A stretch of 64,000 nt of DNA, taken from positions 2,513,648-2,577,647 of the forward strand of contig OZ251509.1 of the NCBI GenBank assembly GCA_965242855.1. The letters are read 5' to 3'. Origin of the DNA: Alphaproteobacteria bacterium (GTDB lineage Bacteria > Pseudomonadota > Alphaproteobacteria > UBA828). The notes below the pieces were generated by a model. The model was not told the origin of the DNA. It was given only the letters and a program-made list of their open reading frames with translations, and searched no databases. The position numbers and the translations under genes were made by a program. Shown here piece by piece: positions 14,312-48,641 of this stretch. Every line of letters begins with the position of its first letter. The first letter of the stretch is position 1.

Positions 14312-14318
14312 CCCGGCC

Positions 14319-15104: not shown

Positions 15105-15159
15105 GATCCCTCCCCGGCGGCAGGCGACGGCGCCTGCCCGAGGCGGGCCCGGCCCGCTT

Positions 15160-15642: not shown

Positions 15643-15762
15643 GTCTCCCTCCCCCGACGCTGGAATCGCCGCGGCCCGGCCGGCCGCGCCTGCACTGCCC
15701 ATGATAGCATGAATGGTTGGGAGAAGCGCCCGACCGACTCACGGGAAAGCGGAAGCGATTCC

Positions 15763-16428: not shown

Positions 16429-16477
16429 GCGCCGCGGGCCGGCGGCGGCGCGCGGCACCGGCCGAGGGAGGCTCCGC

Positions 16478-28600: not shown

Positions 28601-28690
28601 GGCGCCCCGGTTTGCAACCGTCCTGGTTTGCAACATGGCGCTTCGGGCGTGGCGGGGGTATGGAACGGGCTCCCTCCCGCCGGAGCGCGC

Positions 28691-31600
28691 ATGGAGAACC
28701 TTTCCCGCGGCGGCCTGTTCGCCGACGACTTCCTGTGCGGCACCATCGCCGAATCGGCGGATTGGCAGGCGCTCGACGACGCGGCGCTCGACTCCCTCGA
28801 ACGCGACCTCGGCGCGCTCCTCGCGTGCTTCCCCATCGAGGGCGCGCCCAACGAGAGCCAGACCGAGGACGACCTGATCTGGCCCGTGCTCGCCTGCCTC
28901 GGCTGGACGCAGAGCCTGCGGCAGCAGAACCTGAGCGCCCGCGGCCGCGCCGACGTGCCGGACGGCCTGCTGTTCGCCGACGAAGAGGCGAAGGCCCGCG
29001 CCAACGCCCTGCCCGAGGAGTGGAAGCGCTACGGGCTGGGCGCGGCGCTGGTCGAATCCAAGCGCTGGCGGCGCCCGCTCGACCGCCGCTCGGACAGGCG
29101 CGGCGAGGAGACCGCGCCCTCGACCCAGATGCTCCGCTACCTGCGGCGGGTGGAGGACCTGACGGAAGGCAGCCTGCGCTGGGGCATCCTCACCAACGGC
29201 GCCTGCTGGCGGCTCTACTGGCAAGGCGCGCGCTCCGTCTCCGAGCAGTTCTTCGAGCTCGATCTGGCGGCGCTCTTCGATCTGCCGGGCGCGCCGGGCG
29301 CGGTCGGCGACCTGCTCGCCCCCGCGCCGGAGGACCGCCGCCACTGGCTCAAGGTCTTCGCGCTGGTGTTCCGGCGCGCGGCCTTCCTGCCCGGCGCAGA
29401 AAGGCCGGCGAGCTTCCACCTTTACGCCATCGACGAAGGCCGCTTCCACGAGGAGCGCGTCGCCGGCGATCTCTCCGCCAAGGTGTTCGAGCGGGTCTTC
29501 CCGCAGCTCGCCCGCGCCATCGCCGCCGCCGCGCCGGACGCGCCGCTGGCGGAGGTGCGCGAGGCCGCGCTGATCCTGCTCTACCGCCTGCTCTTCATCC
29601 TCTACGCCGAGGACCGCGACCTGCTGCCCGTCCGCGACAGGCGCTACGACGATTACGCCCTGCGCGAGAAGGTGCGCGGCGACGTCGGGCGGCGCATGGA
29701 CGAGGGCGACGTCTTCTCCGAGAGCGCCGCCCGCTACTGGTCGGCGGTCGACGATCTCTGCCGGGCCATCGACGCCGGCGACCCCTCCATCGGCCTGCCG
29801 CCCTACAACGGCGGCCTGTTCGACCGGGCCCGCACGCCGCTGCTCGGCCGCGTCCGGCTGGGCGATGCGGTCATGGCCGACGTCATCGACGCGCTCTCCT
29901 TCGAACGGACGGCGGACGGGCGCCGCAAGTACATCAACTACCGCGATCTCGGCGTCCGCCAGCTGGGCTCCGTTTACGAACGCCTGCTGGAGCGCGCGCT
30001 GGCGGCGGAGGGCGAAGGCGTCGTCGTCCGCCCCGACGTCTTCGCGCGCAAGGAGTCCGGCAGCTACTACACGCCGGACGATCTGGTCGGCCTGATCCTC
30101 GAGGAGACGCTGGGGCCGCTCGCCGCCGCGCCCATGGAGGCGTTCCGCGCCCGCGCCGAGACGCTGGCGAAGGATCGGCGCGACGCCGCGCCTCGCATCG
30201 CCGAATTGCGCAAGATCGATCCGGCCGAACGCCTGCTGGCGCTCAAGGTCTGCGACCCGGCCATGGGCTCCGGGCATTTCCTGGTCAACCTGGTGGACCG
30301 GCTCGCCGACCGGACCATCGCCGCCATGGCCGAAGCGGAGGCGGCGGTCGACTGGGGCGCATACCGTTCGCCGCTCGCCGACCGCATCGAGGCCATCCGC
30401 GACACCATCCGCGCCAACGCCGAGGCGCACGGCTGGAGCGTCGCGCCCGAACGCCTCGACGACCGCCACGTCGTGCGGCGCATGGTGCTCAAGCGCTGCG
30501 TCTTCGGCGTGGACAAGAACCCGATGGCGGTGGAGCTCGCCAAGGTCTCGCTCTGGCTGCACACCTTCACCGTCGGCGCGCCGCTCTCCTTCCTGGATCA
30601 TCATCTGCGCTGCGGCGACAGCCTGTTCGGCGCCTGGGTGCGCGCCGGCGTCGACAAGGCGGTCGAATACGGCACGCCGCTGCTGCTGCACGATTCGATC
30701 GCCCGCGCCGACGGCGCGGCGCGGGGCATGGCGGAGATCGAGGCGCTGACGGACGCGGAGATCGCCGAGGCGCACCGCTCCGCCAAAACCTTCGCCGAGG
30801 TCGAAGCGAAGACCGGGCCGCTCGACCGGATTCTCGCCCTGGTCCACGCCTTCGACTGGCTCGGCCTGCGCGCGCCCGAAGACCGGACGGCGCTCCAATC
30901 CTTCTTCGCGGGCCGCTTCGGCGACCCCGTCGCCATCGCCGCCGGAACGGCGGACCCGCTGCCGGAACGCGCCGAGGGCAGGCGCTTCGCCGAATTGCTG
31001 GACCGGGCGCGGGCGCTGGCCGCGGAGGAGCGCTTCCTGAACTGGCAGGTGGCCTTCCCCGGCGTCTGGTCGCGATGGGAGGGCGCCGAACCGCAAGGCG
31101 GCTTCGACGCCGTGATCGGCAACCCGCCCTGGGACAGGGTGAAGCTGCAACAGGTCGAGTGGTTCGCGGCCCGCCGCCCGGAGATCGCCCGCGCGCGGAG
31201 CGCCGCCGACCGCCGGCGCATGGTCGCCGCGCTGGAGAGGGGCCCGCGGGCCGAGGACCCGCGGGCCGAGGCCCCGCTCGCCCGCGATTTCGCGCGGGCC
31301 GGCGCGCGGGCGGCGGACAGGGCCCGCATGGCGCGGGCCTGCGGCGACTATCCGCTGCTCTCCGGCGGCGACGTGAACCTCTACAGCCTGTTCGTCGAGC
31401 GCGCCCTGGCGCTGGCGAAGCCGGAGGGCGTGGTCGGCCTGCTGGTGCCCTCCGGCATCGCCTCGGACAAGACCGCCGCCCGCTTCTTCAGAGGCGTGGC
31501 GACGGGAGGCCGGCTGCGGGCGCTCTACGATTTCGAGAACCGGCGCGCACGCCACAAGGCGCCGCCGTTCTTCCCGGATGTGCACAACAGCTTCAAGTTC

Positions 31601-32815
31601 TGCGCCTTCGTCGCCGGGCGGGCGCCGGCGCCCGCGCCTGCGCGCTGCGCCTTCTTCCTGCAAGCCGTGACCGAAATCGAGGAGCCTGAGCGGCGCTTCC
31701 CGCTGGCGGCGGCGGATTTCGCCCGCGTCAACCCCAACACCGGCACCGCGCCCGTCTTCCGCAGCCGCCGCGACGCCGAACTGACCGTGGCCATCTACGG
31801 CCGCTTGCCGGTGCTGGTCGACCGCTCGGCAGGCAAGGAGGCGAAGGCGTGGCCGGTGCGCTACACGACCATGTTCCACATGGCCAACGACTCCGGCCTC
31901 TTCCGCACCCGCGCGCAGCTGGAGGAGGAGGAAGGCGCGTGGCCGGTCGGCGGCAACCGCTTCGCCAGCCCCGCCGGGGAATGGGCGCCGCTCTACGAAG
32001 GCAAGATGGTGCAAGCCTTCGACCACCGCGCCGCCGGCATCGTCGTGAAGGAACGGAACCTGTTTCGCCCCGGCCAACAGGAAGCCGCCGAAGCCTCCCG
32101 GAAACGAAACCCCGCCTATTTCCCGACCCCCCGCTACTGGGTCATCGACGATCCCAAGCGATGGAATTGGAGCGACCGGTGGGTTGTCGCCTTCAAGGAC
32201 ATCACCGCCGCCACCAACATGCGCACCATGATCGCGGCAATCGTGCCACGCGCCGGAGCCGGACACACCCTTCCCTTGCTACCGCTGGAAGACGGCGCGA
32301 CGGATCGGGCCTCTCTGGCTTGTTCGATCGTCGCGAACCTGAACGCCGTGGCGTTCGATTTCGTCGCCAGACAGAAGGTTCCGACGACACACTTCACCTG
32401 GTACGTTCTGGAGCAACTTCCCGTGGTCCCGCCCGCGCGCTACGAAGCCGTCCGCTTCGGGCCGAAGACGGCGGGCGCGATCGTCCGCGAATCGGTGCTG
32501 GAACTCACCTACACCGCCCACGACATGGCCCCCTTCGCCCGCGCCCTGGGCCACGTGGACGACTCCGGCGCCCCGCCGCCGCCCTTCCCCTGGGACGAAG
32601 ACCGCCGCCTGGCGCTGCGCGCCCGCCTCGACGCGCTCTTCTTCCACCTCTACGGCGTGACCGATCGCGACGACGTGCGCCACGTCTATTCCACCTTCCC
32701 CATCGTCGAACGCCAGGAGCGCGCGGCGCACGGCCGCTACCGCTCCCGCGACCTCTGCCTCGCCTGGCTCAACGCCCTCGCCGCCGGCGCCCCGGACGCG
32801 GCGATCGAGGGGTGA
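28691..32815 (+). CDS. Single-chain Type IIG/IIL restriction-modification enzyme (PD-ExK nuclease plus gamma-class N6-adenine methyltransferase plus target-recognition domain)
   Basis: N-terminal PD-(D/E)xK-like motif (ADVPDGLLFADEE...ALVESKRW). Methyltransferase motif X (GSYYTPDDLV), motif I (VCDPAMGSGHFLV) and motif IV (IGNPPWDR), followed by a roughly 550-aa C-terminal region. The first in-frame ATG is at 28691. The track's start at 28628 is a TTG. Confidence 0.75.
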   Translation: MENLSRGGLFADDFLCGTIAESADWQALDDAALDSLERDLGALLACFPIEGAPNESQTEDDLIWPVLACLGWTQSLRQQNLSARGRADVPDGLLFADEEAKARANALPEEWKRYGLGAALVESKRWRRPLDRRSDRRGEETAPSTQMLRYLRRVEDLTEGSLRWGILTNGACWRLYWQGARSVSEQFFELDLAALFDLPGAPGAVGDLLAPAPEDRRHWLKVFALVFRRAAFLPGAERPASFHLYAIDEGRFHEERVAGDLSAKVFERVFPQLARAIAAAAPDAPLAEVREAALILLYRLLFILYAEDRDLLPVRDRRYDDYALREKVRGDVGRRMDEGDVFSESAARYWSAVDDLCRAIDAGDPSIGLPPYNGGLFDRARTPLLGRVRLGDAVMADVIDALSFERTADGRRKYINYRDLGVRQLGSVYERLLERALAAEGEGVVVRPDVFARKESGSYYTPDDLVGLILEETLGPLAAAPMEAFRARAETLAKDRRDAAPRIAELRKIDPAERLLALKVCDPAMGSGHFLVNLVDRLADRTIAAMAEAEAAVDWGAYRSPLADRIEAIRDTIRANAEAHGWSVAPERLDDRHVVRRMVLKRCVFGVDKNPMAVELAKVSLWLHTFTVGAPLSFLDHHLRCGDSLFGAWVRAGVDKAVEYGTPLLLHDSIARADGAARGMAEIEALTDAEIAEAHRSAKTFAEVEAKTGPLDRILALVHAFDWLGLRAPEDRTALQSFFAGRFGDPVAIAAGTADPLPERAEGRRFAELLDRARALAAEERFLNWQVAFPGVWSRWEGAEPQGGFDAVIGNPPWDRVKLQQVEWFAARRPEIARARSAADRRRMVAALERGPRAEDPRAEAPLARDFARAGARAADRARMARACGDYPLLSGGDVNLYSLFVERALALAKPEGVVGLLVPSGIASDKTAARFFRGVATGGRLRALYDFENRRARHKAPPFFPDVHNSFKFCAFVAGRAPAPAPARCAFFLQAVTEIEEPERRFPLAAADFARVNPNTGTAPVFRSRRDAELTVAIYGRLPVLVDRSAGKEAKAWPVRYTTMFHMANDSGLFRTRAQLEEEEGAWPVGGNRFASPAGEWAPLYEGKMVQAFDHRAAGIVVKERNLFRPGQQEAAEASRKRNPAYFPTPRYWVIDDPKRWNWSDRWVVAFKDITAATNMRTMIAAIVPRAGAGHTLPLLPLEDGATDRASLACSIVANLNAVAFDFVARQKVPTTHFTWYVLEQLPVVPPARYEAVRFGPKTAGAIVRESVLELTYTAHDMAPFARALGHVDDSGAPPPPFPWDEDRRLALRARLDALFFHLYGVTDRDDVRHVYSTFPIVERQERAAHGRYRSRDLCLAWLNALAAGAPDAAIEG

Positions 32816-32940: not shown

Positions 32941-34047
32941 GTGAGCGCGCACGAGACGACAGGGGGCGGCGCCCCGTCGGAGGAAATCGAGGACCTGGAT
33001 CCCGAGAGCGGATCGTGGGGCGAGTATCCCATCGACGAGCTTCTGATCCGGCAGGAAAACCGGACGATCCACGGCGTCATGCGGCGGATCGACCGGGACG
33101 CCTACATCCTGGATCCCGATTTCCAGCGTGAATTTCTCTGGGACGACGCCAAACAGAGCAAGCTGATCGAATCCGTCATCATGCGTATTCCGCTGCCGGT
33201 GTTCTACATGGCGGAGGACGAAGAAGGGCGGATGGTGGTGGTGGACGGTTTGCAACGCCTGTCCACGTTTCGGCGGTTCGTGAAGGACGAATTGCCGTTG
33301 CGTCTTCCGGATCGACACGAACTGAATCAGAAACGATTCTCGGATTTACCGCCCAAGCTCAAGAACCGCGTCGAGGATTGCAACCTCACGTTCTACATCA
33401 TCGACTCGAAGGCACCGGAGCGCGCCCGCCTGGATATCTTCGAACGGGTGAACGGCGGTGTGCCGCTCACGAGGCAGCAGATGCGCAATTGCCTGTTCAT
33501 GGGCGCGGCAACCAAGTTTCTCAAGGAGGAATCGCAAACCGAAATTTTCATACTGTCGACCGGTAGAAGCCTGGACAGTAAGACCATGCGCGACCGGGAG
33601 TTCGTCAACCGCTTTTGCGCCTTTCGACTTCTTGATCTCGACGACTATAGCGGCTACATGGATGATTTTCTCGCCAAATGCCTGCGTTGTATGAACGAAA
33701 TGGACGAAACCGGACTCTCTCGGCTGTCCGGGCAATTCCGCCGAAGCCTCGCCAGCAATCACAGGCTATTTGGACGACACGCCTTCAGGAGATCCAGGGA
33801 GCCTGACCGGCGCAGCTTTCTCAACGCCTCGTTCTGGGACGTGATGTCCACCGGCCTGTGCCGGTACACCCAGGACCGGGTCGAAGCGCGCGCCGACGAT
33901 CTTCGCGATGCCGTCCACCGGCTTCTCGACGACGAGGAGTTCAACACCGCAATCACCTACAGCCCCAACGACTCCAGGAAGGTGAAGCATCGCTTTCAGA
34001 TGGCCCGAAACATGTTCGAGGAGATCTTGGGTGCTCACACGGATTGA
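32941..34047 (+). CDS. DUF262 (GmrS/ParB-like NTPase-nuclease fold) domain protein
   Basis: DUF262 hallmarks LDPDFQREFLWD and VVDGLQRLSTF (a DGQQR-type motif). GC content is clearly lower than the flanks. Confidence 0.75.
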   Translation: MSAHETTGGGAPSEEIEDLDPESGSWGEYPIDELLIRQENRTIHGVMRRIDRDAYILDPDFQREFLWDDAKQSKLIESVIMRIPLPVFYMAEDEEGRMVVVDGLQRLSTFRRFVKDELPLRLPDRHELNQKRFSDLPPKLKNRVEDCNLTFYIIDSKAPERARLDIFERVNGGVPLTRQQMRNCLFMGAATKFLKEESQTEIFILSTGRSLDSKTMRDREFVNRFCAFRLLDLDDYSGYMDDFLAKCLRCMNEMDETGLSRLSGQFRRSLASNHRLFGRHAFRRSREPDRRSFLNASFWDVMSTGLCRYTQDRVEARADDLRDAVHRLLDDEEFNTAITYSPNDSRKVKHRFQMARNMFEEILGAHTD

Positions 34048-35173
34048 TCTTCGACATTTCAAGTGTTTCGGCGAATTGAAGCTGCCCCTTCGACCGCTCA
34101 CGCTTCTTTCCGGCACCAATGCTTCGGGGAAATCGACGGTTTTGCAGGGGCTGGCGCTTATTCACCAGACGATGCGGGAACATGAATGGTCGCCGCGGCT
34201 GATGCTGAACGGCACGGCCGTCCGCCTCGGCACCGTCGCCGACGTGATCGATCAAGTCCAGGGGCGCCGCGAATGCGAAATCGGCCTGCTGGATGGCGAT
34301 ACGGTCTTTCGATGGACGTTTACGGGTGAACGCGAAGACATGTCGATGGACGTCGCCCGCCTCGTCGCCGCCGACACCGAGCATGACCGTCCGACCGGTC
34401 TTCGCCACTTGTTGCCACCTCCGCACGAGGATGGCCGGTTGGCGCAACGGCTTCGGACGCTGACCTACCTGACGGCGGAACGGCTGGGTCCGCGCGAAAC
34501 TTATCCTTTGGAAGATCCGCAAGGCGCGCCGGTCGTCGGCTCGCGAGGAGAGCATACCGTCAGCGTTCTCCATGCCGGCCGCGACGCCGACGTGCCGGAC
34601 CGCCTGCGGCTTCCGGACATGCCCGGCACCCGGTTGCGACAGGTCGAGGCGCGGATGGCCCGGTTCTTCCCCGGTTGTGGACTGGAGGTCAGGGAAGTCG
34701 TCGGCGCCAATGCGGCGATGTTGGGGCTTCGCACGTCCAGCGATATGGATTTCCACCGCCCGGCTCACACCGGCTTCGGCCTCACCCAGGTGCTTCCCAT
34801 CGTCGTCGCGGCCTTGTCCGCGGACCAGGACGGCCTGCTGCTGATCGAGAACCCGGAAGTGCATCTCCACCCCGCCGGACAGGCGGCGATGGGGAAGTTC
34901 CTGGCCGAAGTCGCGGCGGCCGGCGTTCAGGTTCTTCTTGAGACGCACAGCGACCACGTCCTGAACGGCATTCGCCGGGCGGTCAAAGACGAGACGCTGT
35001 CCGCCGGCGCCGCCGCGGTGCATTTCTTCCGGCCGTATCGCGACGACGGCCGGGGCGGCGTGGCCCAAGCGCAGAGCCTGGCCCTGGACGAGGCCGGCAA
35101 CGTCGACTCCTGGCCCGACGGATTCTTCGACCAGTTCGACAAGGACATGAACTACTTCGCCGGCTGGAGTTGA
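34031..35173 (+). CDS. ABC-type AAA ATPase (AAA_21-like) with a DUF3696-like C-terminus
   Basis: Walker A LLSGTNASGKST, Walker B/D-loop LLLIENPEVHLHP, and a C-terminal WPDGFFDQFDKD motif. The start overlaps the DUF262 gene by 17 nt. Confidence 0.75.
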   Translation: MLTRIDLRHFKCFGELKLPLRPLTLLSGTNASGKSTVLQGLALIHQTMREHEWSPRLMLNGTAVRLGTVADVIDQVQGRRECEIGLLDGDTVFRWTFTGEREDMSMDVARLVAADTEHDRPTGLRHLLPPPHEDGRLAQRLRTLTYLTAERLGPRETYPLEDPQGAPVVGSRGEHTVSVLHAGRDADVPDRLRLPDMPGTRLRQVEARMARFFPGCGLEVREVVGANAAMLGLRTSSDMDFHRPAHTGFGLTQVLPIVVAALSADQDGLLLIENPEVHLHPAGQAAMGKFLAEVAAAGVQVLLETHSDHVLNGIRRAVKDETLSAGAAAVHFFRPYRDDGRGGVAQAQSLALDEAGNVDSWPDGFFDQFDKDMNYFAGWS

Positions 35174-35174
35174 C

Positions 35175-36134
35175 GTGGAGCTTTTCGTCAACGACAAGTC
35201 GATCCACGGGCAATTCCACGACCTGCAATCGTTTCGCGGCGCTTTCGGCAGGCTGATGGTGCTGCACGCGGCCGCCCGGCGCCACGAGCGTGATATTCAT
35301 TGCCCCCGCGCGCTGTTGGCCGTCGAACCGTTGCCGGGCGTTTCGATGCAGCAGACGATCGGGCATCTGTCGGAAAGCGAACGCCGTTCCGCGATGCGCT
35401 GGCTGACGCAAGGCGGTCCGTTCTGGGACGATCTGCGCCGGCATGGGCCCGACGACTGGCTGGAGTGTCGAGGCGACGTCGTCACCGACTCCGCCGTCGG
35501 CGAAGCCGCGTACCGGAAACTTCACGGCGTCGAATGCGGTCTCGTCAGTGTCGTCCCTTCCGACTGGGACTTCTCGCCCGTGGAGGTGGCGTGGCAGCGG
35601 GAGGCCGAGGGACTGGCTGATCGACGGACGGACCTCGAAAACTGGCGCGACCCCGCCGCCTTGGAAAACGGGCTGCGCGCCGCGGCGCCGCCGGTCCAAT
35701 CGTGGGGAGATTTGCGGAACGTCTCGGTGCGCCGTTTCACGCGCCTGACCTTCGCCGACGACGCCTTCCAACCCCTCGACGGGACTCCGTTCTCCGCGAG
35801 CGCGTCGGAGCGCATCGTGGTGCTGCTGGACATCCTGGACCGTCTTGCGCGGGCGTTCGATCCATCCGGCAAGCGGACGCCAGAAGGAAACCGCCTCCAT
35901 CAGGACCACTTCAGGGGCCGCAACGCACTGTTTTCCGATTCGTCCCCCACGGAGAGGCACGATTTCCGCAACGAATTGACGTTCCCCGATCCCGGTGGTT
36001 CCGGTAGTTCCTTGTTCTGCCCGTGGCACGGCAAGGTACGAAGATCGGTCTTGCGCCTGCACTTCTCGTGGTCGTTTCGCTCCGGAGAGCCGGTCTGCAT
36101 CGTCTACGTTGGGCCGAAGATCACTCGCCGCTGA
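35175..36134 (+). CDS. Hypothetical protein, third gene of the DUF262-ATPase cassette
   Basis: The ATG lies 2 nt after the ATPase stop. No recognisable motif was found. The ORF is 319 aa. Confidence 0.5.
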   Translation: MELFVNDKSIHGQFHDLQSFRGAFGRLMVLHAAARRHERDIHCPRALLAVEPLPGVSMQQTIGHLSESERRSAMRWLTQGGPFWDDLRRHGPDDWLECRGDVVTDSAVGEAAYRKLHGVECGLVSVVPSDWDFSPVEVAWQREAEGLADRRTDLENWRDPAALENGLRAAAPPVQSWGDLRNVSVRRFTRLTFADDAFQPLDGTPFSASASERIVVLLDILDRLARAFDPSGKRTPEGNRLHQDHFRGRNALFSDSSPTERHDFRNELTFPDPGGSGSSLFCPWHGKVRRSVLRLHFSWSFRSGEPVCIVYVGPKITRR

Positions 36135-39753: not shown

Positions 39754-39793
39754 CGCCAATCGGATGGAGCAGAGAGGCGCCGCCTGCACGACA

Positions 39794-39831
39794 CAAATCA
39801 GTTGTCAACGAAAAGGTTGACAACTGATTTG
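39794..39831. terminator. Perfect 16-bp inverted repeat with a 6-nt loop in an AT-rich spacer. It could be a terminator or an operator.
   Basis: The repeat reads CAAATCAGTTGTCAAC-GAAAAG-GTTGACAACTGATTTG. It lies just after the stop of the monooxygenase gene and 47 nt before the next start. TTGACA occurs twice, at 39817 and 39832. Confidence 0.45.
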
Positions 39832-39877
39832 TTGACACCCATCATACGACAAATCCGTTGGTATTGAGAGGCGGGCC

Positions 39878-41104
39878 ATGAAACCGGCTACCGGCCGTTG
39901 GGTGAGCGGCGACGACTTCTGCGGCCGCGAAACCGAATTGGGCATTTTGGAAACGCGGGCCCGTGAGGGCAACCATACGCTGCTCACCGGGCAGCGGCGC
40001 ATGGGGAAGACCAGTATCGCCCGCGAGCTCGGGCGGAGGCTGGAGGGTGCCGGCTGGACCGCGCTCTTCGCCGACGTCGAGGATGCGGCGTGCGCGGAAG
40101 ACGCGATCGCCGAGATCGCCCGGGCCGCGTACCCGGTTCGCTCCATCGTGGCGCGCGTCGCCGCCAGCGTAGCGCGCGTCCGGGACATCCGCGGGAAGGT
40201 CGAGGTCGGAGCACTCGACTTTCGCGTGAAGTTCCGCGCCCGCCTGGACGCCGGAAACTGGCGGCGCCACGGGGACAGCCTGATCCGCGCCTGCGCCAAG
40301 CACGAACAACCGGTTCTCCTCGTCGTCGACGAACTGCCGATCCTCCTCACGCGCATGCTTCGCGAAGAAGACGGCGCGCGGCATGTCGACGACTTCCTGA
40401 GCTGGCTGCGGCGCGCGCTCCAGGGGCTGGAAGGCGGCTCTCCGGTCGTCATCCTCTCCGGCAGCATCGGCCTCATGCCCCTGGTGGCCCGGCTCGGCAT
40501 TCCCGACCGAGTCAACTACCTTGATTCCTTCCGCCTGGGACCCTGGAGCCACGACGAGAGCATCGCCTGTTTCGAGCGGCTCGCCGCGCGTTGCGGCTTG
40601 CAGGTCGAGGACGGCGTTGCCGGCGCCGTTTACGACACCCTCGGCATCGGCATTCCCCACCACGTGCAGTCCTTCTTTGCGCGTTTGCGGGAAGCCGCCG
40701 CGATGCGGGGGCGCGACCGGATGACGAAGGCGGACGTTGGCGAGGTCTACCGCACGGGGCTCCTCGGACCATCGGGGCAGAGTGATCTCCTGCATTACGA
40801 GACCCGCCTCGCGGATGCGCTGGACGACGAAAGCCGCAGGATCGCGATGGAGATCCTCGCCGAGGCCGCGGTCCAGGGTGTGTTCGGCGCCGATGCGCGG
40901 CGCGCCATCGAACGGTCTTACACGCCGTTGTTCCCGGATGCGCCCGCCCGCGTCGTTGCGGCGCTCGACGTGCTGGGGCACGACGGCTATCTCGAACCCG
41001 GCGCCGACGGTTATCGCTTCCCGTCGCGCCTGCTGAAGGACTGGTGGGCGACACGCTTTCGCGATCACCATATGCCGCTCGCGGAGCGGGGCGCCCGGCC
41101 ATGA
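39878..41104 (+). CDS. Arch_ATPase/ORC-like P-loop NTPase (ATP-binding protein)
   Basis: N-terminal FCGRETEL followed by Walker A LLTGQRRMGKTS, and Walker B LLVVDELP. Confidence 0.7.
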   Translation: MKPATGRWVSGDDFCGRETELGILETRAREGNHTLLTGQRRMGKTSIARELGRRLEGAGWTALFADVEDAACAEDAIAEIARAAYPVRSIVARVAASVARVRDIRGKVEVGALDFRVKFRARLDAGNWRRHGDSLIRACAKHEQPVLLVVDELPILLTRMLREEDGARHVDDFLSWLRRALQGLEGGSPVVILSGSIGLMPLVARLGIPDRVNYLDSFRLGPWSHDESIACFERLAARCGLQVEDGVAGAVYDTLGIGIPHHVQSFFARLREAAAMRGRDRMTKADVGEVYRTGLLGPSGQSDLLHYETRLADALDDESRRIAMEILAEAAVQGVFGADARRAIERSYTPLFPDAPARVVAALDVLGHDGYLEPGADGYRFPSRLLKDWWATRFRDHHMPLAERGARP

Positions 41105-43575
41105 CCGCCCCGAACGCCCGGACGCTCCGCAAGTTCAATCCCGGGCTGTTCCAGTCCGACCGCGAGGTGATCGAACAATTTGTCGTCCGGCACCGCGAGC
41201 TCGAGAGGGTGCTCGAGATCCTCCGGGGAAACGTCGACTCGCCGTCCTGCCAGCACGTCCTGGTCGTCGCGCCGCGCGGCCGGGGCAAGACCATGCTGCT
41301 GGCGCGCGTCGCCGCCGAGCTCCGGACCGACGAAGCGCTCTCCCGGCGCCTGTTGCCGGTGCGGTTCATGGAGGAAAGTCATGAGATCCTCGGTCTCGCC
41401 GACTTCTGGCTCGAAGCGCTGTTTCACTTGGCGCGGGAGACCGATGTCCCGGCTCTCTCGCGGGAGTTGCGTGACACCCATGCCGACCTGAAATCCCGCT
41501 GGCGCGAGCGCGAACTGCCCGACCGCGCCCGCGCCGCCGTCGTCGAAGCGGCGGAACTCCTCGACAGGCGGCTGGTCCTCATGGTCGAGAACCTTCAGGC
41601 ACTCTGCGACTCCGTGGACGACGATTTCGGCTGGGGGCTTCGCCAAGCGTTGCAGTCGGAGCCCCGGATCGTGCTGCTGGCCACCGCCACCAGCCGCTTC
41701 GCGGCGCTGGACGATGCGCGCCAGCCCTTCTTCGAACTGTTCTGGCAAGTCTCTCTGGAGCCGCTGGACAGGGAGGCATGCCGGCGCCTGTGGCGCGCGG
41801 TCGCCGGGGACGGCAGGAGCGATGGCGAAATCAGGGCCTTGCAAATCCTCACCGGCGGCAGCCCCCGCCTGCTGGTCATCGTCGCGGAATTCGCGCGGCA
41901 TCGCTCCCTGCGCCGCCTGATGGACGAACTGGTGACCCTGATCGACGACCACACGGAGTATTTTCGCGGCCACCTGGAGAGCCTGGCCAGGACCGAGCGC
42001 CGGGTCTATCTGGCGGCAGTCGATCTCTGGCGGCCGTCGAGCACCGGCGAGATTGCGGCGCGTTCCGCGATGGACGTGCGCCCCGTCTCGACCATGCTCG
42101 GCAGGCTCGTCGACCGCGGCGCGATCGCCGTAGAAGGAACCGGCCGCAAGCGGCGCTACGCCGCCGCCGAGCGCCTCTATTGCATCTACTACAAGCTGCG
42201 GCGCGAACGCGACGAAGCGGCCGTCGTGCAAAACCTGATCCGCTTCATGGCGGTCTTCTACGGCCGCGACGAACTGGCGGACCTGTCCGGCCTGCTCCGC
42301 GCCGAAGCGATGCAGTCGGCAATCATTCGCGAGGGGATCGAACGCGCGATCGCCGAAGCGCCGGAAATCGGAAGCATCTTCCCCGGCGAGACATGGCCGA
42401 ACATCGCCCGGCCGGCCGGCTTGGCCGAAACAAGCGAGATCGACCTCGCGGCACTCGTGAAGAAGGCGGCCTCGCACGTGGAGCGCGGCGAATCCGAGGC
42501 AGCGGTCACAACATGCGACCAAGTGATCGAACGCTTCGGCGACGACGACACGCCGGAAATCCGAGCGCAGGTCGCCTGGGCGTTGACCTGCAAGGGTATT
42601 ACGCAAGGCAAGCTTGGCGAGACTGAGGCAGCGATCGCAACATGCGACCAAGCGATTGAACGCTTCGGTGACGACGACACGCCAGAAGTACGGCCGGCGG
42701 TTGTCATAGCGCTGGTCCTCAAGGGTATTACGCAAGGCAAGCTTGGCGAGGCTGAAGCGGAGATCAAAACATACGATCAAGCGATCGAACGCTTTGGCGA
42801 TGACGACACGCCAGAAGTACGGCCGGCGGTTGTCGTAGCACTGGTCCTCAAGGGTATTACGCAAGGCAAGTTCGGCGAGGCTGAAGCGGAGATCAAAACA
42901 TACGATCGAGCGATCGAACGCTTCGGCAATGACGGCACGCCGGAAGTTCGGGCGCTGGTCGCCAGGGTGCTGGTCAACAAGGGCATTGCCCAAGGACAGC
43001 TTGGCGAGTCCAGGGCGGAGATCACGACATACGATCAAGCGATCGAACGCTTCAGCGACGACGGCACGCCGGAAGTTCGAGCGCTGGTCGCCTGGGCGCT
43101 GGTCCGCAAGGGCATCGCGCAAGGGCGGCTTGGCGAGTTCGAGGCGGCAATCGCGACCTACAACCAAGTGATCGAACGCTTCGGCGGTGACGGCACGCCG
43201 GAAGTCCGGGCGCCGGTCGCCGATGCGTTGGCCAACAAGTGTGCGGTGCAAATGAGAATCGGCCGCGCGGAAGATGCTCTGGATACCTTTCGCCTCGCGT
43301 ATGCCGCATTCGCTCCCGACGATCAGGCGATGCTGGGTGCCATGCAGGAAACCGTACCGGCGTTGATCGCCGGCGGCCTCCTCGAGCGCGGCCTCATCGA
43401 GATACTCGAGGAGGACCGCGAGAAAGCGGACGCTCTGGCGCCGCTCATCGTGGCCCTGCAACAGCGCGCCGGCGACAGCGTCCGCGCGCCGGCCGAGGTG
43501 CTCGAAGTCGCGGCCGACATCCTGGAACAAATCGAGGGGAAAAGCACGGTGCCGGCCGCTCTCCCGGATTCGTGA
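41101..43575 (+). CDS. STAND-like P-loop NTPase with a winged helix-turn-helix (wHTH) and 43-aa TPR-like tandem repeats
   Basis: Walker A VVAPRGRGKTML, Walker B LVLMVENLQ, a MarR-like wHTH (RRVYLAAVDLWRPSSTGEIAARS), then six 43-aa repeats of the form TxDQAIERFGDDDTPEVRxxVxxALVxKGITQGKLGExEAxIx. The start shows an ATGA overlap with the upstream ATPase. Confidence 0.7.
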   Translation: MTAPNARTLRKFNPGLFQSDREVIEQFVVRHRELERVLEILRGNVDSPSCQHVLVVAPRGRGKTMLLARVAAELRTDEALSRRLLPVRFMEESHEILGLADFWLEALFHLARETDVPALSRELRDTHADLKSRWRERELPDRARAAVVEAAELLDRRLVLMVENLQALCDSVDDDFGWGLRQALQSEPRIVLLATATSRFAALDDARQPFFELFWQVSLEPLDREACRRLWRAVAGDGRSDGEIRALQILTGGSPRLLVIVAEFARHRSLRRLMDELVTLIDDHTEYFRGHLESLARTERRVYLAAVDLWRPSSTGEIAARSAMDVRPVSTMLGRLVDRGAIAVEGTGRKRRYAAAERLYCIYYKLRRERDEAAVVQNLIRFMAVFYGRDELADLSGLLRAEAMQSAIIREGIERAIAEAPEIGSIFPGETWPNIARPAGLAETSEIDLAALVKKAASHVERGESEAAVTTCDQVIERFGDDDTPEIRAQVAWALTCKGITQGKLGETEAAIATCDQAIERFGDDDTPEVRPAVVIALVLKGITQGKLGEAEAEIKTYDQAIERFGDDDTPEVRPAVVVALVLKGITQGKFGEAEAEIKTYDRAIERFGNDGTPEVRALVARVLVNKGIAQGQLGESRAEITTYDQAIERFSDDGTPEVRALVAWALVRKGIAQGRLGEFEAAIATYNQVIERFGGDGTPEVRAPVADALANKCAVQMRIGRAEDALDTFRLAYAAFAPDDQAMLGAMQETVPALIAGGLLERGLIEILEEDREKADALAPLIVALQQRAGDSVRAPAEVLEVAADILEQIEGKSTVPAALPDS
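42508..43281 (+). repeat. Six in-frame tandem 129-bp repeats, near-identical at the DNA level
   Basis: Unit starts fall at about 42508, 42637, 42766, 42895, 43024 and 43153. Units 2 and 3 differ at only a few nucleotides. Confidence 0.75.
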
Positions 43576-43682
43576 TCGCGGACGATCGGGCAACCGCCCG
43601 GCGGGCGTTGGCAATCATGCGCCGATTGGCCTAGGGTGCGGGGCGAGTGGAGGTCGAACGTCGAGGCCGGTGGCGATGGGCC

Positions 43683-44126
43683 ATGGCTGATCCCGGATCC
43701 CGAGAAAACCCCTCGATGGAGGAAATCCTGGCCTCCATCCGCCGGATCGTCGTGGAGGAAAGCGGCGCTCCCGCCAGGGACGGCGACATCCTCGACCTGA
43801 CCGACGTCGTGGACGAGGAAGGCAACGTCGTCGCGCGGGAAAGCGCCGCGAGCGGCCCGCTTCCAAGCGCCGGGCCGCCGCCCCCCTGTCTGGACACGCC
43901 GCTGGTGTCGCCCTCCGTCGAGGCCGAGGTCGCCCGAGCGCTCCGGCGCGCGGGCCCGGACGCGCCGCCACCGGCCGGCGCGGACGACCGGGCCATCGAG
44001 GACCACCTGCGCGCGATGCTGCGACCGATGCTCCAGGAATGGCTGGACAAGCACCTGCCGGGGATCGTCGAACGCCTCGTGCAAGGCGAAATCGCGCGCA
44101 TCGCGCGCCGCTCCGGCCCCGGATAG
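43683..44126 (+). CDS. popZ: PopZ-like polar organizing protein (DUF2497 C-terminal domain)
   Basis: N-terminal [15 protein letters not shown] motif, an acidic proline-rich linker, and a C-terminal segment [28 protein letters not shown]. Confidence 0.6.
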
Positions 44127-44181: not shown

Positions 44182-46845
44182 ATGCTGGACAAGACCTATC
44201 GGCCCGCCGAGTTCGAAGGCCGACTCTACGAGGCCTGGGAACGCGGCGGCGCGTTCGCCGCGCGTCCCGGCGGGGCGGGCGGGGCGCAGCCTTATTGCGT
44301 CATGATGCCGCCGCCCAACGTCACGGGCAGCCTCCATATGGGCCACGCGCTCAACAACACCTTGCAGGACGTGCTGACCCGCTACCGGCGCAAGACCGGT
44401 CGCCGCGCGCTCTGGCAGCCCGGCATGGACCACGCCGGGATCGCGACCCAGATGGTCGTCGAGCGCCAGCTGGCGGAGGAAGGAAGCGACCGCCGGCGCA
44501 TGGGCCGCGAGGCGTTCATCGAGCGGGTTTGGGCCTGGAAGGCGGAATCGGGAGGCGCGATCCAGCACCAGCTGCGCCGCCTCGGCGCCTCGCCCGACTG
44601 GACGCGCGATCGCTTCACCATGGACGAAGGCTTGAGCCGGGCCGTGGTCGAGGTCTTCGTCGCCCTCCATCGGCAGGGCCTGATCTACCGGGACAAGCGC
44701 CTCGTCAATTGGGACCCGGCGCTGCGCACCGCGATCTCTGACCTGGAGGTCGTCCAGCGCGAAGCGGCGGACGGCAGGCTCTGGCACATCCGCTATCCCC
44801 TCGCGGACCGGCCGGGTGCCCATGTCGTGGTCGCCACCACCCGGCCCGAAACCATGCTGGGCGATACCGCCGTGGCCGTCCACCCGGAAGACCCGCGCCA
44901 CCGCAGCCTCGTCGGCGCCGAGGCCGTCCTGCCGCTGGTCGGCCGCCGCCTGCCGATCGTCGCCGACGCCCATGCCGACCCGGAGCAGGGATCGGGTGCG
45001 GTGAAGATCACCCCCGCCCACGACTTCAACGATTTCGAGGTGGGCCGCCGGCACGGCCTCGAGGTCGTCAACCTGTTCGACGAGAACGCCCGGCTCAACG
45101 AGAACGTGCCCGAAGCCTATCGCGGCCTCGACCGCTTCGCCGCGCGTGAGCGGATCGTCGCCGATCTTCAGGGCCTCGGCCTGATCGAGAAGATCGAGCC
45201 CCATGCCCATGCGGTGCCCGTCGGCGACCGTTCGGGCTCGGTCATCGAGCCCTGGCTCACCGATCAGTGGTATGTCGACGCCGCGACCCTCGCCGGCCCC
45301 GCGATCGAGGCCGTCGAATCCGGCCGCATCCGTTTCGTCCCGGAGCGGTGGGCGAACACCTATTTTGAATGGATGCGCAACATCCAGCCCTGGTGTATCT
45401 CCCGCCAGCTCTGGTGGGGCCATCGCATTCCGGCCTGGTACGGCCCCGACGGCCAGGCGTTCGTCGCCGCCGACGAGGCCGGCGCGCGGGAAGCAGCGGC
45501 GCGCCATTATGGCGAGCCCGTGGCGCTCACCCGCGATCCCGACGTGCTGGACACCTGGTTCAGTTCCGCCCTCTGGCCTTTCTCCACCCTCGGCTGGCCG
45601 GAGCGCACGGAGACGCTGGCGACCTACTATCCCAACGACGACATGATCACCGGCTTCGACATCATCTTCTTCTGGGTCGCGCGGATGGTCATGCTCGGCA
45701 TCCACTTCATGGGCGGGGTCCCCTTCCGCACCGTCTATATCCACGCGCTGGTGCGGGACGAGACGGGGCGGAAGATGTCCAAGAGCCAGGGCAACGTCAT
45801 CGACCCGCTGGCGCTCATGGACGAATACGGCGCCGACGCGCTGCGCTTCACCCTCGCCGCGATGGAGGCGCAAGGCCGCGACATCAAGCTCTCCGAGAGC
45901 CGCGTCGCCGGCTACCGCAACTTCGCGACCAAGCTGTGGAACGCCGCGCGGTTCTGCGAGGCGAACGAATGCCGGCCCGCTCCCGGCTTCGCTCCGGCGG
46001 GATGCCGGAGCGTCGTCAACCGGTGGATCGTCGGCGAGGCGGCGCGGACGGCGGAGGCCGTTACCGCCGCGCTCGATGCCTACCGCTTCAACGAAGCGGC
46101 GGGCGCGGTCTATCGCTTCGCCTGGGGCGTGTTCTGCGATTGGTACCTGGAGTTCGCGAAGGCGCCGCTGGGCGGCACCGACGGGCCGGAGAGGCGGGAA
46201 ACCCGCGCCGTCGCCGGCTGGGTGCTGGACACCGTCCTCGGCCTGCTCCATCCGTTCATGCCGTTCGTCACCGAGGAGCTGTGGGGCAGGCTCGACGAGA
46301 GCCGGGCCGGTGGTCTGATCGCGGCCCCCTGGCCGGCGCCCGGCGCGGACGTCGCCGATCCCGCGGCCGATCGGGAGATGGATTGGGTGGTGCGACTGAT
46401 CTCGGCGGTCCGCGCCGTGCGCGCCGAGATGAACGTGCCGGCGGGAGCGCGAATCACCCTCGGCCTGCGCGGCGCGGCGCCGGAGACGCTGGACCGGCTG
46501 CGGCGGCACCGCGCGGCCGTCACGCGACTCGCCCGACTGAGCGAGGCCGCGGCGCTGGAAGGCGCCGTGCCGCGCGGCGCCGTCCAGGCCGTGCTGGACG
46601 AGACGACCGTCGTCCTGCCGCTCGCCGGCGTGGTCGCGTTTGAGAAGGAGCGTGCGCGCCTCGAGAAGGAGATCGGCCGGCTCGAGGGGAGAATGGCCGG
46701 CATCGAGAGGAAGCTCGGCGACGAACGCTTCCTCGAGCGGGCGCCGGCCCATGTCGTGGACGAGCAGCGGGGACGCCTGCAAGAGGCACGGGACGCGCGG
46801 GCGCGCCTGGAGGAGGCGCTGGCGCGAATCGCCGCGTCTTCGTGA
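44182..46845 (+). CDS. valS: Valine--tRNA ligase
   Basis: HIGH motif (SLHMGHAL), KMSKS motif, and a C-terminal coiled coil. Confidence 0.95.
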
Positions 46846-46919: not shown

Positions 46920-48641
46920 ATGAGCGCGAAGTTCGACAAGTCGAAGCTGCCGAGCAGGCATATCACCGAGGGGCCGAAGAGCGCCGCTCACCGGTCGTTC
47001 TTCTATGCGATGGGGGTCTCCCGGCAAGCGATGAGCCGGCCCATCGTGGGCGTCGCGACGACCTGGAACGAAACCGCCCCCTGCAACATCACGCTGCGCC
47101 GGCAGGCGCAGGCGGCGAAGGCGGGGGTCGAGGAAGCCGGTGGCACGCCGCGCGAATTCACCACGATCACCGTGACCGACGGCATCGCCATGGGCCATCA
47201 GGGGATGAAGTCCTCGCTGGTCTCGCGCGACGTGATCGCCGATTCCGTCGAGCTCACCATGCGCGGGCATTCCTACGACGCCCTGGTCGGCATCGCCGGC
47301 TGCGACAAATCGCTGCCGGGCATGATGATGGCGCTGGTGCGGCTCAACGTGCCCGGAGTCTTCCTCTACGGCGGTTCGATCCTGCCCGGCCGTTTCCGCG
47401 GCCGCGACGTGACGGTCATGGACGTCTACGAGTATTACGGCAAGCTCAGCGAGGGTGCGGTCAGCGAGGCCGATCTCGCCGAGCTCGAAGCGGTGGCCTG
47501 CCCCTCCGGCGGCTCCTGCGGCGGCCAGTTCACCGCCAACACCATGGCCTGCGTCTCGGAGGCGATCGGCCTCGCCTTGCCGCATTCGGCGGGAGCGCCC
47601 GCGGTGTACGAATCCCGCGACGAGTTCGCCGTGGCCTCCGGCAACCGCGTCATGGCGCTGATCGAGAACGACATCCGCCCCAGGGACATCGTGACGCGCA
47701 AGGCGCTGGAAAACGCCGCGACGGTGGTGGCCGCCACCGGCGGCTCGACCAACGCGGGGCTCCACCTTCCGGCGATCGCCAGCGAGGCCGGCATCGATTT
47801 CGACCTGTCGGCGGTCGCCGAAGTGTTCGGGCGCACGCCCTATATCGCCGATCTCAAGCCCGGCGGCCGCTACGTCGCCAAGGACCTGTTCGAGGCGGGC
47901 GGCGTGCCGATCGTGCTCAAGGCGCTGCTCGACGGCGGCTACCTGCACGGCGACTGCCTCACCGTCACCGGGCGCACTCTCGCCGAGAATCTGGCCGACG
48001 TGGCGTTCCCACGCGAGCAGGACGTCGTGCTGCCCACCTCGGCGCCGCTCTCGCCGACCGGCGGCGTGGTGGGGTTGAAGGGCAATCTCGCGCCCGAGGG
48101 GGCGATCGTGAAGGTCGCCGGCCTCTCCCGCCTGCGCCACGTGGGCCCCGCCCGCTGCTTCGATAACGAGGAGGAAGCGATGAAGGCCGTGGTCGGGCGC
48201 GATTATCGCTCGGGCGACGTGATCGTGATCCGCTACGAGGGGCCGAAGGGCGGGCCGGGGATGCGCGAGATGCTCGCGGTGACCTCGCAGATCTACGGCC
48301 AGGGCAAAGGCGAGGAGGTCGCGCTGATCACCGACGGGCGCTTCTCGGGCGCAACGCGCGGGTTCTGCATCGGCCATGTCGGGCCGGAGGCCGCGGTCGG
48401 CGGCCCCATTGCGCTGATCCGGGACGGCGACGAGGTGACCATCGACGCGACGCGCGGCGCGCTCGGCGTCGCGGTCTCCGAGGCCGAGCTGGCGAAACGC
48501 CGCAAGAGCTGGAAACCGCGCCCGACGGATTATCAGTCCGGCGTGCTCTGGAAATACGCGGCGACCGTCGGGCCGGCCTATCGGGGCGCCGTGACGCATC
48601 CGGGCGGCGCGGCCGAAACCCACGTTTACGCCGACATATAG
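46920..48641 (+). CDS. ilvD: Dihydroxy-acid dehydratase (IlvD/EDD family, short form)
   Basis: Cysteine Fe-S ligand motifs (CDKSLPG and GGSCGGQFTANTMA) and a length of 573 aa. Confidence 0.82.
   Translation: MSAKFDKSKLPSRHITEGPKSAAHRSFFYAMGVSRQAMSRPIVGVATTWNETAPCNITLRRQAQAAKAGVEEAGGTPREFTTITVTDGIAMGHQGMKSSLVSRDVIADSVELTMRGHSYDALVGIAGCDKSLPGMMMALVRLNVPGVFLYGGSILPGRFRGRDVTVMDVYEYYGKLSEGAVSEADLAELEAVACPSGGSCGGQFTANTMACVSEAIGLALPHSAGAPAVYESRDEFAVASGNRVMALIENDIRPRDIVTRKALENAATVVAATGGSTNAGLHLPAIASEAGIDFDLSAVAEVFGRTPYIADLKPGGRYVAKDLFEAGGVPIVLKALLDGGYLHGDCLTVTGRTLAENLADVAFPREQDVVLPTSAPLSPTGGVVGLKGNLAPEGAIVKVAGLSRLRHVGPARCFDNEEEAMKAVVGRDYRSGDVIVIRYEGPKGGPGMREMLAVTSQIYGQGKGEEVALITDGRFSGATRGFCIGHVGPEAAVGGPIALIRDGDEVTIDATRGALGVAVSEAELAKRRKSWKPRPTDYQSGVLWKYAATVGPAYRGAVTHPGGAAETHVYADI

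Follow-up and report, generated by a model that had tools for sequence, protein, structure and literature searches.

What is the role of a gene pair that joins a receptor-like nucleoside triphosphatase (NTPase) to a second, smaller ATPase and carries no obvious effector domain? The question is raised by a locus in a 64,000-nucleotide stretch of an alphaproteobacterial genome (contig OZ251509.1, positions 2,513,648 to 2,577,647; hereafter the window), in which two genes, here called gene 1 and gene 2, overlap. The original prediction, made by a model from the sequence alone, described them as an unassigned module and named defence, regulation and control of a mobile element as possible functions. 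Sequence comparison indicates that gene 1, gene 2 and the promoter/operator before them are a self-contained cassette, which is inherited and exchanged as a unit across at least nine phyla. As to its function, we tentatively favour, at slightly less than an even chance, an autoregulated sensor resembling the nucleotide-binding leucine-rich repeat (NLR) receptors, which acts with an ORC/Cdc6-like partner in conflict or defence. In the searchable literature we found no earlier description of the pair (including in sponge symbionts) or of the operator motif, and none of autoregulation by ATPase_2 proteins or of a function for DUF234/COG1672. Gene 2 appears to have the architecture of signal transduction ATPases with numerous domains (STAND) and of NLR receptors, without the effector and the hidden Markov model (HMM) match that define Avs proteins.

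A gene pair with a conserved promoter and operator

Both open reading frames (ORFs), of 408 and 824 residues, were present as predicted, together with the ATGA overlap and the quoted FCGRETEL and Walker A motifs (Table 1). A longer GTG-initiated ORF for gene 2 exists from position 41044; homologues begin at the ATG at 41101 (M..RKFNPG). The overlap implies that the two genes are translationally coupled. The N-terminal region of gene 2 lay directly after gene 1 in 86 of 86 loci, at 57-77% identity. All-against-all ORF clustering of 82 loci, using naive ORF calls for the flanks in high-GC DNA, yielded no third conserved gene and left the two genes with their shadow ORFs; flanking genes were randomly oriented. 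A third gene or effector in the operon was also rejected on Pfam and PADLOC analysis of the immediate neighbours, which gave no recurrent partner. The neighbourhood profiling proposed with the original prediction therefore identified these two genes as the only conserved unit. That prediction had further called a paralogous ATPase upstream unusual. A second ATPase is present, as an obligate partner, whereas paralogy of the two NTPase domains was not demonstrable (BLASTP E 0.07; hhalign probability 35%, over the P-loop only).

The module had also been said to follow an AT-rich palindromic spacer. This tract is AT-rich (42% GC, against 62% in the flanks) and holds a perfect palindrome, and comparison of related loci refined it to a conserved promoter/operator. 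In close relatives the left arm of the palindrome pairs over its inner 6-8 bp only, and the right arm is invariant. The operator pattern matched once in the 64-kb window, with 0.00 matches expected (100 shuffles). A promoter scan gave 10/12 matches for the sigma-70-type promoter, the -10 box being TATCAT in relatives, and the -35 box and spacer lie inside the operator. Across phyla, TTGACA and TAnnnT are conserved at 17-nt spacing, with a perfect TTGACA-17-TATAAT in one locus (L045). Of the 82 loci, 76 have GTTGACA in the 160 nt that precede gene 1. The 9-mer GTTGACAAC has 77 copies in the 16 kb made up by the 200-nt upstream regions, and 5 elsewhere across 1.69 Mb. An additional palindrome, TTCAAC-N6-GTTGAA, follows the -10 box at many loci. 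Judging from this conservation, the promoter/operator is part of the cassette.

In three Latescibacterota loci (L013 at 14073-16532, and also L023 and L025) a second gene 2 paralogue directly follows the pair, with its own promoter between two GTCAAC-N6-GTTGAC palindromes. One gene 1 is thus accompanied by two sensors.

We scanned metagenome contigs for the 19 specified bases of the operator and obtained at least 120 matches, 101 of which were assessable. Among the matches listed, an ATPase-family gene starts about 70 nt downstream of the operator in 41 of the 101, comprising 24 gene 1-like genes, one gene 2-like gene and 16 distant relatives. The distant operator-bearing set, which was found by the motif search itself, includes a pair with 36% identity (L184), stand-alone ATPases of about 395 residues (L100, L121) and ATPase_2/DUF234-type genes of about 470 residues (L098, L105, L131, L159, L200). 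When six DUF234-type plasmid genes were picked by similarity of their proteins, none had the GTTGA motif, indicating that this operator is subfamily-specific and not universal. Three of them, from Vescimonas (L216), Rhizobium (L217) and Cetobacterium (L218) and hence from three phyla, shared ATAATT-N2-AATTAT some 40-90 nt upstream, with a partial match in B. ovatus. Members of the COG1672 superfamily may in general have conserved self-operators. Given that the ATPase family is the only component common to the operator's hosts, autoregulation by its own winged helix is the most economical explanation, and we infer that the element is a candidate operator for such control.

A stand-alone gene 1-like ATPase of 407 residues with 24% identity was found at 3905-5128 of a Methylomonas sp. 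AM2-LC plasmid locus (CP157006.1; L215). It adjoins a type I restriction HsdR-like gene and a metalloprotease-like gene, has no tetratricopeptide repeat (TPR) partner, and is preceded by related (A)CAAC-N6-GTT(G/A)T sites.

The two proteins and the repeat array

Both N-terminal domains had been likened to the ATPase family found predominantly in archaea, which held in part. The gathering score of AAA_16 (32.6) was passed by gene 1 (34.9) and gene 2 (33.4) in Pfam, whereas gene 1 reached 18.1 bits against PF01637 (ATPase_2), under the gathering score of 33.2; some homologues have a precomputed PF01637 match. Matches to nSTAND1 and nSTAND5 fell below the Pfam threshold, and NCBI names the homologues merely 'ATP-binding protein'. 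No NCBIfam match of gene 1 to the orc1/cdc6 model TIGR02928 was found, gene 2 giving E 0.047. A solved relative was rejected on sequence: a search of the PDB weakly matched 2qen (Pyrococcus PAB2304) and 2fna (Sulfolobus SSO1545) alone, both ATPase_2 structures, and weak P-loop, TPR and MarR matches were otherwise the only ones.

Structure models, built on shallow alignments of 24 and 28 sequences, predict for gene 1 an AAA+ core, a helical lid and a C-terminal winged helix, as in the solved ATPase_2 members. The nearest folds to this model are those of DNA-acting AAA+ proteins (ORC, Cdc6, TnsC, MuB and DnaA), and the matches in the fold comparison include plant NB-ARC (16.9), TnsC (16.4) and CED-4 (16.4). 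Past residue 250 the model holds helices and a single hairpin. The winged helix is modelled as helices 338-348, 355-368 and 384-394 with a beta-hairpin at 373-380, and in the alignment H368, D369, G370, Y371, L372, F381, D388 and W389 are invariant. Its Y.i.D.l.r.W wing motif is also found in distant ATPase_2 relatives. Pfam gave no match to PF03008/DUF234 in gene 1, whose chain ends at residue 408 after the winged helix. Conservation of gene 1 is high, at 65% identity for the homologue of rank 120 and 77% mean column identity.

Gene 2 follows the domain order of a STAND protein, as had been predicted: a P-loop NTPase from about residue 22, a GxP helical domain with invariant TGG.PRLL at residues 251-258, a winged helix and a C-terminal TPR-like array. 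The winged helix and the six repeats were borne out by weak family matches and model topology for the former, and by units in register for the latter. The winged-helix matches (range about 3e-3 to 7e-3) include TrmB (E 4.8e-3), DUF7342 (E 3.1e-3) and Penicillinase_R, with E 1e-3 against MarR 2fa5, and the model places helices at 297-338 and strands at 342-355. TPR-family Pfam matches are strong. Searches with the C-terminal tail returned short proteins only (60-147 aa) and no other domain architecture. Assignment of the pair to a named defence system was rejected, with no system-level match in PADLOC, NCBIfam or Pfam.

The Walker B motif of gene 2 departs from the STAND pattern hhhhD[DE]: E163 and N164 stand in its place, so that of the two acidic residues one remains and Asn replaces the second. 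Gene 1 has a canonical hhhhDE, in contrast to the invariant hhhhEN of gene 2. In the manner of Walker B Glu-to-Gln trap mutants, gene 2 may bind ATP yet hydrolyse it poorly. A degenerate Walker B is also present in some Avs proteins, such as KpAvs8 (PMC13581612).

At the DNA level the array is a tandem repeat with a period of 129 bp, 5.6 copies and 83% matches (TRF), and identity between units in the window averages 66% for amino acids (53-86%) and 76% for nucleotides (66-88%). The 121 homologues compared have arrays of 4-15 units (median 11). Among strains of one lineage (P0013), in which gene 1 is 100% identical and the syntenic position is the same, gene 2 measures 823, 823, 1252 and 1295 aa; it measures 1125 aa in P0004, whose gene 1 is 91% identical to that of P0013, and 968, 1054 or 1140 aa in a second lineage (P0029). 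Some of these differences are exact multiples of 43 aa (1295-1252 = 43; 1140-1054 = 1054-968 = 86), and the remainder lie within 1-2 residues of such a multiple. Contigs from long reads show this variation, and the six-unit allele of the window is on a contig of 3.56 Mb, so assembly collapse accounts for part of it at most; collapse may affect some short-read alleles.

Within the unit, positions 25, 26, 29, 32, 33, 36, 37, 39 and 40 are variable, as are 1 and 4, and positions 27, 28, 30, 31, 34, 35 and 42 are near-fixed. In the structure model this variability would fall on one face of the long second helix (i, i+3/4, i+7), with the packing positions fixed. On these comparisons the repeat array behaves like a receptor surface that gains, loses and diversifies units within populations. 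In three metagenome strains of the P0029 lineage (L002, L004 and L006) gene 2 is split in or near the repeats, into ORFs of 584+297, 600+381 and 547+338 aa, which are either real frameshift alleles or long-read indel errors.

Distribution, transfer and genomic surroundings

Among clusters at 90% identity we found 1632 relatives of gene 1 and 3534 of gene 2. At E of 1e-30 or lower gene 1 had 203 matches among 1.84 billion representatives at 50% identity. The family is a small one, its clade of 55% or higher identity amounting to essentially one cluster. Relatives are encoded by 297 loci in GTDB species genomes. Among the best 80 of these 297, all of them metagenome-assembled genomes (MAGs), were Latescibacterota (14), Gammaproteobacteria (12), Alphaproteobacteria (7), Vicinamibacterales (7), Bryobacterales (7), Spirochaetia (7), Binatia (6), Nitrospirales (4), Caldilineaceae (4), other Acidobacteriota (3), Gemmatimonadota (2), Thermodesulfobacteriota (2) and unclassified bacteria (5). 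Carriers belong to at least nine phyla.

The same mix of taxa has been reported for demosponge microbiomes (PMC8163846), and a sponge source is documented for MPMP01 (L044) and for the MKWU01 contigs, the latter from Aplysina aerophoba (PMC5649159). At least one MAG (MFD03804) may be of non-sponge origin. For other loci a sponge origin was inferred from isolate names, in which COS1, IRC1 and RHO resemble Coscinoderma, Ircinia and Rhopaloeides; the names 'Langseth' and 'PANK22' we take to be sponge-derived as well. The carriers are apparently mostly sponge symbionts.

Horizontal acquisition of the module had been proposed, and this holds at the level of the family. Gene 1 identity reaches 86% across phyla (Latescibacterota versus Nitrospirales), with medians of 68% within and 67% between phyla, which argues for extensive horizontal transfer. 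The identity matrix of gene 1 correlates with that of the N-terminal region of gene 2 (r = 0.79), indicating that the pair moves as one unit. In the lineage of the window the cassette is syntenic among relatives at 86-91% identity, and cassette GC follows host GC (r = 0.67). Acquisition in this lineage is therefore not recent, and transfers in general mostly are not. The 3' end of the cassette has no conserved sequence or hairpin downstream of gene 2. Phage or plasmid carriage was rejected on searches of viral contigs and plasmids, given below with the other points that bear on function. One Spirochaetia contig (CBDCDL010000002.1) has two cassette copies about 2.2 Mb apart (L020 and L077).

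Upstream in the window, a complete Menshen system (PADLOC) occupies 32941-36134, with GC falling to 0.58-0.62 at 33000-34500. Menshen and a type IIG restriction-modification gene make up a defence island whose end lies 3.7 kb before gene 1 and which is syntenic in L087-L093. Two ABC permease genes and an LLM oxidoreductase gene lie between Menshen and gene 1. Downstream, genes for DUF2497 (43647-44126), valS (44182-46845) and ilvD (46920-48641), all on the forward strand, constitute an alphaproteobacterial block conserved in all close relatives.

Table 1. Positions of the cassette and of nearby defence genes in the window.
Feature	Position	Strand	Remarks
Type IIG restriction-methyltransferase/DrmMI-like gene	28628-32815	+	1395 aa; PADLOC E 6e-77; Pfam Eco57I
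Menshen NsnA	32941-34047	+	PADLOC E 7e-115
Menshen NsnB	34031-35173	+	PADLOC E 2.6e-100
Menshen NsnC	35175-36134	+	PADLOC E 1e-105
Extended perfect palindrome ACAAATCAGTTGTCAAC-gaaaag-GTTGACAACTGATTTGT	39793-39833	+	17-bp arms; window-specific
Operator array TCAAC-N6-GTTGACAAC-N6-GTTGA	39805-39835	+	Two abutting 16-bp palindromes; 31-bp exact match
Sigma-70-type promoter	39817-39845	+	-35 TTGACA 39817-39822; 17-nt spacer; -10 CATCAT 39840-39845
Shine-Dalgarno-like GAGAGG	39866-39871	+	6 nt 5' of gene 1 ATG; invariant among close relatives
Gene 1	39878-41104	+	408-aa ATPase_2/AAA_16-type (ORC/Cdc6-like) NTPase with C-terminal winged helix; FCGRETEL at residues 14-21
Gene 1 Walker A GQRRMGKTS	39989-40015	+	Residues 38-46; near-invariant in alignment
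Gene 1 Walker B LLVVDELP	40316-40339	+	Residues 147-154; D151 and E152 invariant; strand 146-151 in model
Gene 1 C-terminal winged helix	40883-41062	+	Residues ~336-395; HDGYL...F.S.LL.DWW
Gene 1/gene 2 start/stop overlap ATGA	41101-41104	+	4-bp overlap in most related loci
Gene 2	41101-43575	+	824 aa: NTPase, helical GxP domain, winged helix, linker, six TPR-like repeats, conserved helical tail
Gene 2 Walker A APRGRGKTM	41269-41295	+	Residues 57-65; near-invariant
Gene 2 atypical Walker B LVLMVEN	41572-41592	+	Residues 158-164; V159, M161, E163 and N164 invariant; strand 157-162 in model
Gene 2 winged helix, MarR/TrmB-like	41989-42180	+	Residues 297-360; weak matches and model topology
Six 43-aa (129-nt) TPR-like repeats	42493-43266	+	Residues 465-722; units at 465, 508, 551, 594, 637 and 680, in register
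Gene 2 C-terminal tail	43267-43572	+	Residues 723-824; non-repeated; conserved in 27 of 28 homologues; all-helical in model

Possible functions of the cassette

In favour of an NLR-like sensor with an ORC/Cdc6-like partner we count the STAND anatomy, the obligate pairing and joint inheritance, the transfer between phyla, the receptor-like repeat turnover, the operator, the DNA-acting nearest folds of gene 1 and the defence genes near some cassettes, including Menshen and the type IIG gene in the window. These observations allow us to propose how such a system could work. At rest, a winged helix would bind the two palindromes over the -35 box and spacer and hold expression low; that of gene 1 is the likelier binder, given that distant stand-alone relatives have the same operator. 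The variable face of the gene 2 repeats would capture a non-self ligand, in the likeliest case a protein of a phage or mobile element, upon which gene 2 may take up and retain ATP and then oligomerise. The oligomer could engage gene 1, as a sensor NLR engages its helper or ORC engages Cdc6, and the output would be an ATP-driven action of gene 1 on DNA, namely derepression and/or a polymerisation that arrests replication or transcription. The autorepression step draws on the conserved cis element, and the ligand, ATP-assembly and gene 1 engagement steps draw on analogies with these known proteins.

A modest and tentative association of the cassette with defence genes was observed. An HsdM-like gene (type I methylase) lies within 5 kb in 12 of the 82 loci, at about 200 bp or less in 7, and the immediate neighbours include HsdS in 2 loci and HsdM in 5. 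With the null of 0.0153 that Lee et al. 2026 (PMC13581612) applied to STAND clades, the binomial P is 5e-9; raising the null to 0.05 gives 8e-4. Since one gene type was counted, the figures are a lower bound on defence genes; in view of the ancestry shared by several loci and the abundance of restriction-modification systems in sponge symbionts, they are also an upper bound on significance.

Several points weigh against the defence explanation. The HsdM association concerns a single gene type in loci that share ancestry, and sponge symbionts are rich in restriction-modification systems, so the true null is higher. The immediate neighbours are mostly housekeeping or metabolic genes. Neither protein has an effector domain detectable by Pfam, NCBIfam or PADLOC, in agreement with the original prediction, and the check for Pfam and Avs families that it had proposed gave, beside AAA_16, no match to an Avs or other PADLOC model, with weak P-loop matches to mad8/PDC-S01 at E 8e-4 or weaker. 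No relatives were found among the 2.9 million viral contigs of IMG/VR, and the plasmids of PLSDB gave a single remote relative at 24% identity. Between repeat units, the ratio of non-synonymous to synonymous substitution (dN/dS) is 1.0-1.6 at variable codons and 0.24-0.31 elsewhere, which is supportive and not decisive, as the sites were picked by amino-acid variability and the comparison is partly circular. Finally, among the operator matches listed, 60 of the 101 have no ATPase gene downstream, and the pattern also lies 5' of ArsR/SmtB-type helix-turn-helix (HTH) genes (L127, L130, L150, L161, L163 and L188), so the motif is not exclusive to the ATPase family.

Comparison with known receptors places gene 2 near, and outside, the Avs group. 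Avs and related bacterial NLR-like proteins share with it the order of P-loop NTPase, helical/winged-helix module and C-terminal TPR-like sensor, as well as horizontal transfer and, tentatively, some association with defence genes. In contrast to Avs, the cassette has no N-terminal or other effector domain and no Avs HMM match, its NTPase is nearer to ATPase_2/AAA_16 than to known Avs clades, and it possesses an obligate second ATPase gene and a conserved operator. Its sensor is a short array of regular, near-identical repeats, where Avs proteins have a large irregular TPR domain. In plants, paired sensor and helper NLRs are encoded by adjacent genes with related NTPases, one with variable recognition repeats and the other conserved. 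Gene 2, with its variable repeats, and gene 1, with its high column identity, resemble such a pair, whereas gene 1 has neither repeats nor a signalling domain and homology of the NTPase domains is not demonstrable.

A parallel to the repeat pattern of gene 2 is found in fungal and other NLRs with high-internal-conservation repeats (PMC13449251). Common to both are tandem repeats, apparently near-identical in gene 2, copy-number polymorphism between strains, few hypervariable positions and a short, conserved, non-repeated C-terminal end. In those NLRs the units are 80-100% identical, against the means of 66% (amino acids) and 76% (nucleotides) and maxima of 86-88% in gene 2, which differs also in that its repeat is a 43-aa TPR variant and in lacking an N-terminal cell-death domain.

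Gene 1 is best compared with ATPase_2 proteins (PF01637, COG1672), which are often fused to DUF234, a domain classed as PD-(D/E)XK by Steczkiewicz et al. 2012 (PMC3424549). It shares with them the F.GRE.EL start, a GG.P motif and the winged helix with its Y.i.D.l.r.W wing, and some distant members have the same operator. Unlike them it scores under the PF01637 threshold and has no C-terminal DUF234. The known members, of a family without an established function, stand alone and are not paired with a TPR sensor.

The main rival to the defence explanation is a ligand-sensing transcription regulator, not immune in function, that would follow the STAND logic of MalT or AfsR; we consider it unlikely, if a serious contender. 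Its TPR array would sense a small molecule or a host or community protein, and ATP-dependent assembly would shift occupancy of the GTTGA palindromes and so control the cassette and unlinked genes. The conserved operator over a strong promoter, the two winged helices, the lack of effector domains and the mainly housekeeping neighbours all fit such a role, and many STAND clades are non-defence regulators (PMC13581612). MalT/LAL regulators likewise combine a STAND NTPase and a sensor of helical repeats, with DNA binding plausible as the output. The cassette differs in its two-gene organisation and in having no linked target operon, and Pfam detects in it no LuxR-type HTH, SARP or other output DNA-binding domain of known STAND regulators. 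A LuxR/MalT-type activator with a cognate operon, the case that the original prediction had itself set against its reading, is contradicted by the lack of a LuxR HTH and of any conserved neighbour or target gene in the 82 loci. Other operator copies in the 1.69 Mb of flanks and the 64-kb window occur only before extra sensor paralogues, and fast repeat turnover with cross-phylum transfer would be unusual for a regulator of host metabolism. The regulator explanation is therefore weakened by the absence of co-travelling target genes and of other operator copies in the sequence available.

An ORC-like module for the replication or maintenance of a mobile element, integrated or degraded, is improbable. 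Here gene 1 would bind iteron-like repeats beside its own gene, as archaeal Orc1/Cdc6 binds its ORB repeats, and the modelled fold nearest ORC/Cdc6 (and TnsC, MuB and DnaA), the extensive transfer across phyla and the repeated half-sites are in keeping with this. Orc1/Cdc6 loci, too, have inverted repeats in an AT-rich stretch just before the gene. However, the TIGR02928 match is not significant, and the cassette is bacterial, chromosomal and placed at varied non-origin positions, syntenic in close relatives. There are no conserved integrase, transposase, relaxase or replication genes nearby and no conserved element or repeat at the 3' boundary, and relatives are absent from viral contigs and nearly so from plasmids. 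The half-sites coincide exactly with the -35 box and spacer of the promoter, which fits an operator better than an origin.

A 'eukaryote-like' TPR protein mediating interaction with the sponge host is very unlikely. The taxon mix and the documented sponge sources speak for it, as does the enrichment of TPR and other repeat proteins in sponge-symbiont genomes (PMC8163846). The repeats nevertheless belong to one chain with a P-loop NTPase of cytoplasmic type and a winged helix, an ATPase partner is obligate, the cassette has a putative autoregulatory operator, and no signal-peptide-like hydrophobic N-terminus is visible by eye in the sequence or alignment, no dedicated predictor having been run. 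We give hardly any credence to a transposon target-selection or regulatory ATPase of TnsC, MuB or IstB type, given that no conserved transposase lies nearby (occasional unrelated insertion sequence copies only), terminal repeats are absent and the position is stable and syntenic in relatives.

The preferred explanation, an NLR-like sensor with an ORC/Cdc6-like partner, can be put in a more specific form, which we advance as a speculative and, in full, rather unlikely proposal. In this form the cassette would be an effector-less two-component NLR, in which an ATP-locked sensor with hypervariable TPR units recruits an ORC/Cdc6-like helper, and the action of the helper on DNA, by derepression or by arrest of replication or transcription, would itself be the immune output. 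The system would travel with a portable promoter/operator that works across phyla, mainly within sponge-symbiont communities. Should this be true, it would follow that the proteins of the large ATPase_2/COG1672 superfamily are autoregulated ATPases that bind DNA sequence-specifically.

If correct, the sensor-partner explanation adds to the bacterial NLR-like receptors a paired form without an enzymatic effector, and gene 2 would offer a tractable bacterial case of receptor diversification through repeat shuffling. The 31-bp operator provides a first cis-regulatory handle on the uncharacterised ATPase_2/COG1672 superfamily. Studies of sponge symbionts count TPR proteins as 'eukaryote-like' host factors, and some of these, as represented here, would be cytoplasmic sensors coupled to an NTPase. 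The cassette also offers a clean marker for gene flow among nine or more phyla with an apparently common host habitat.

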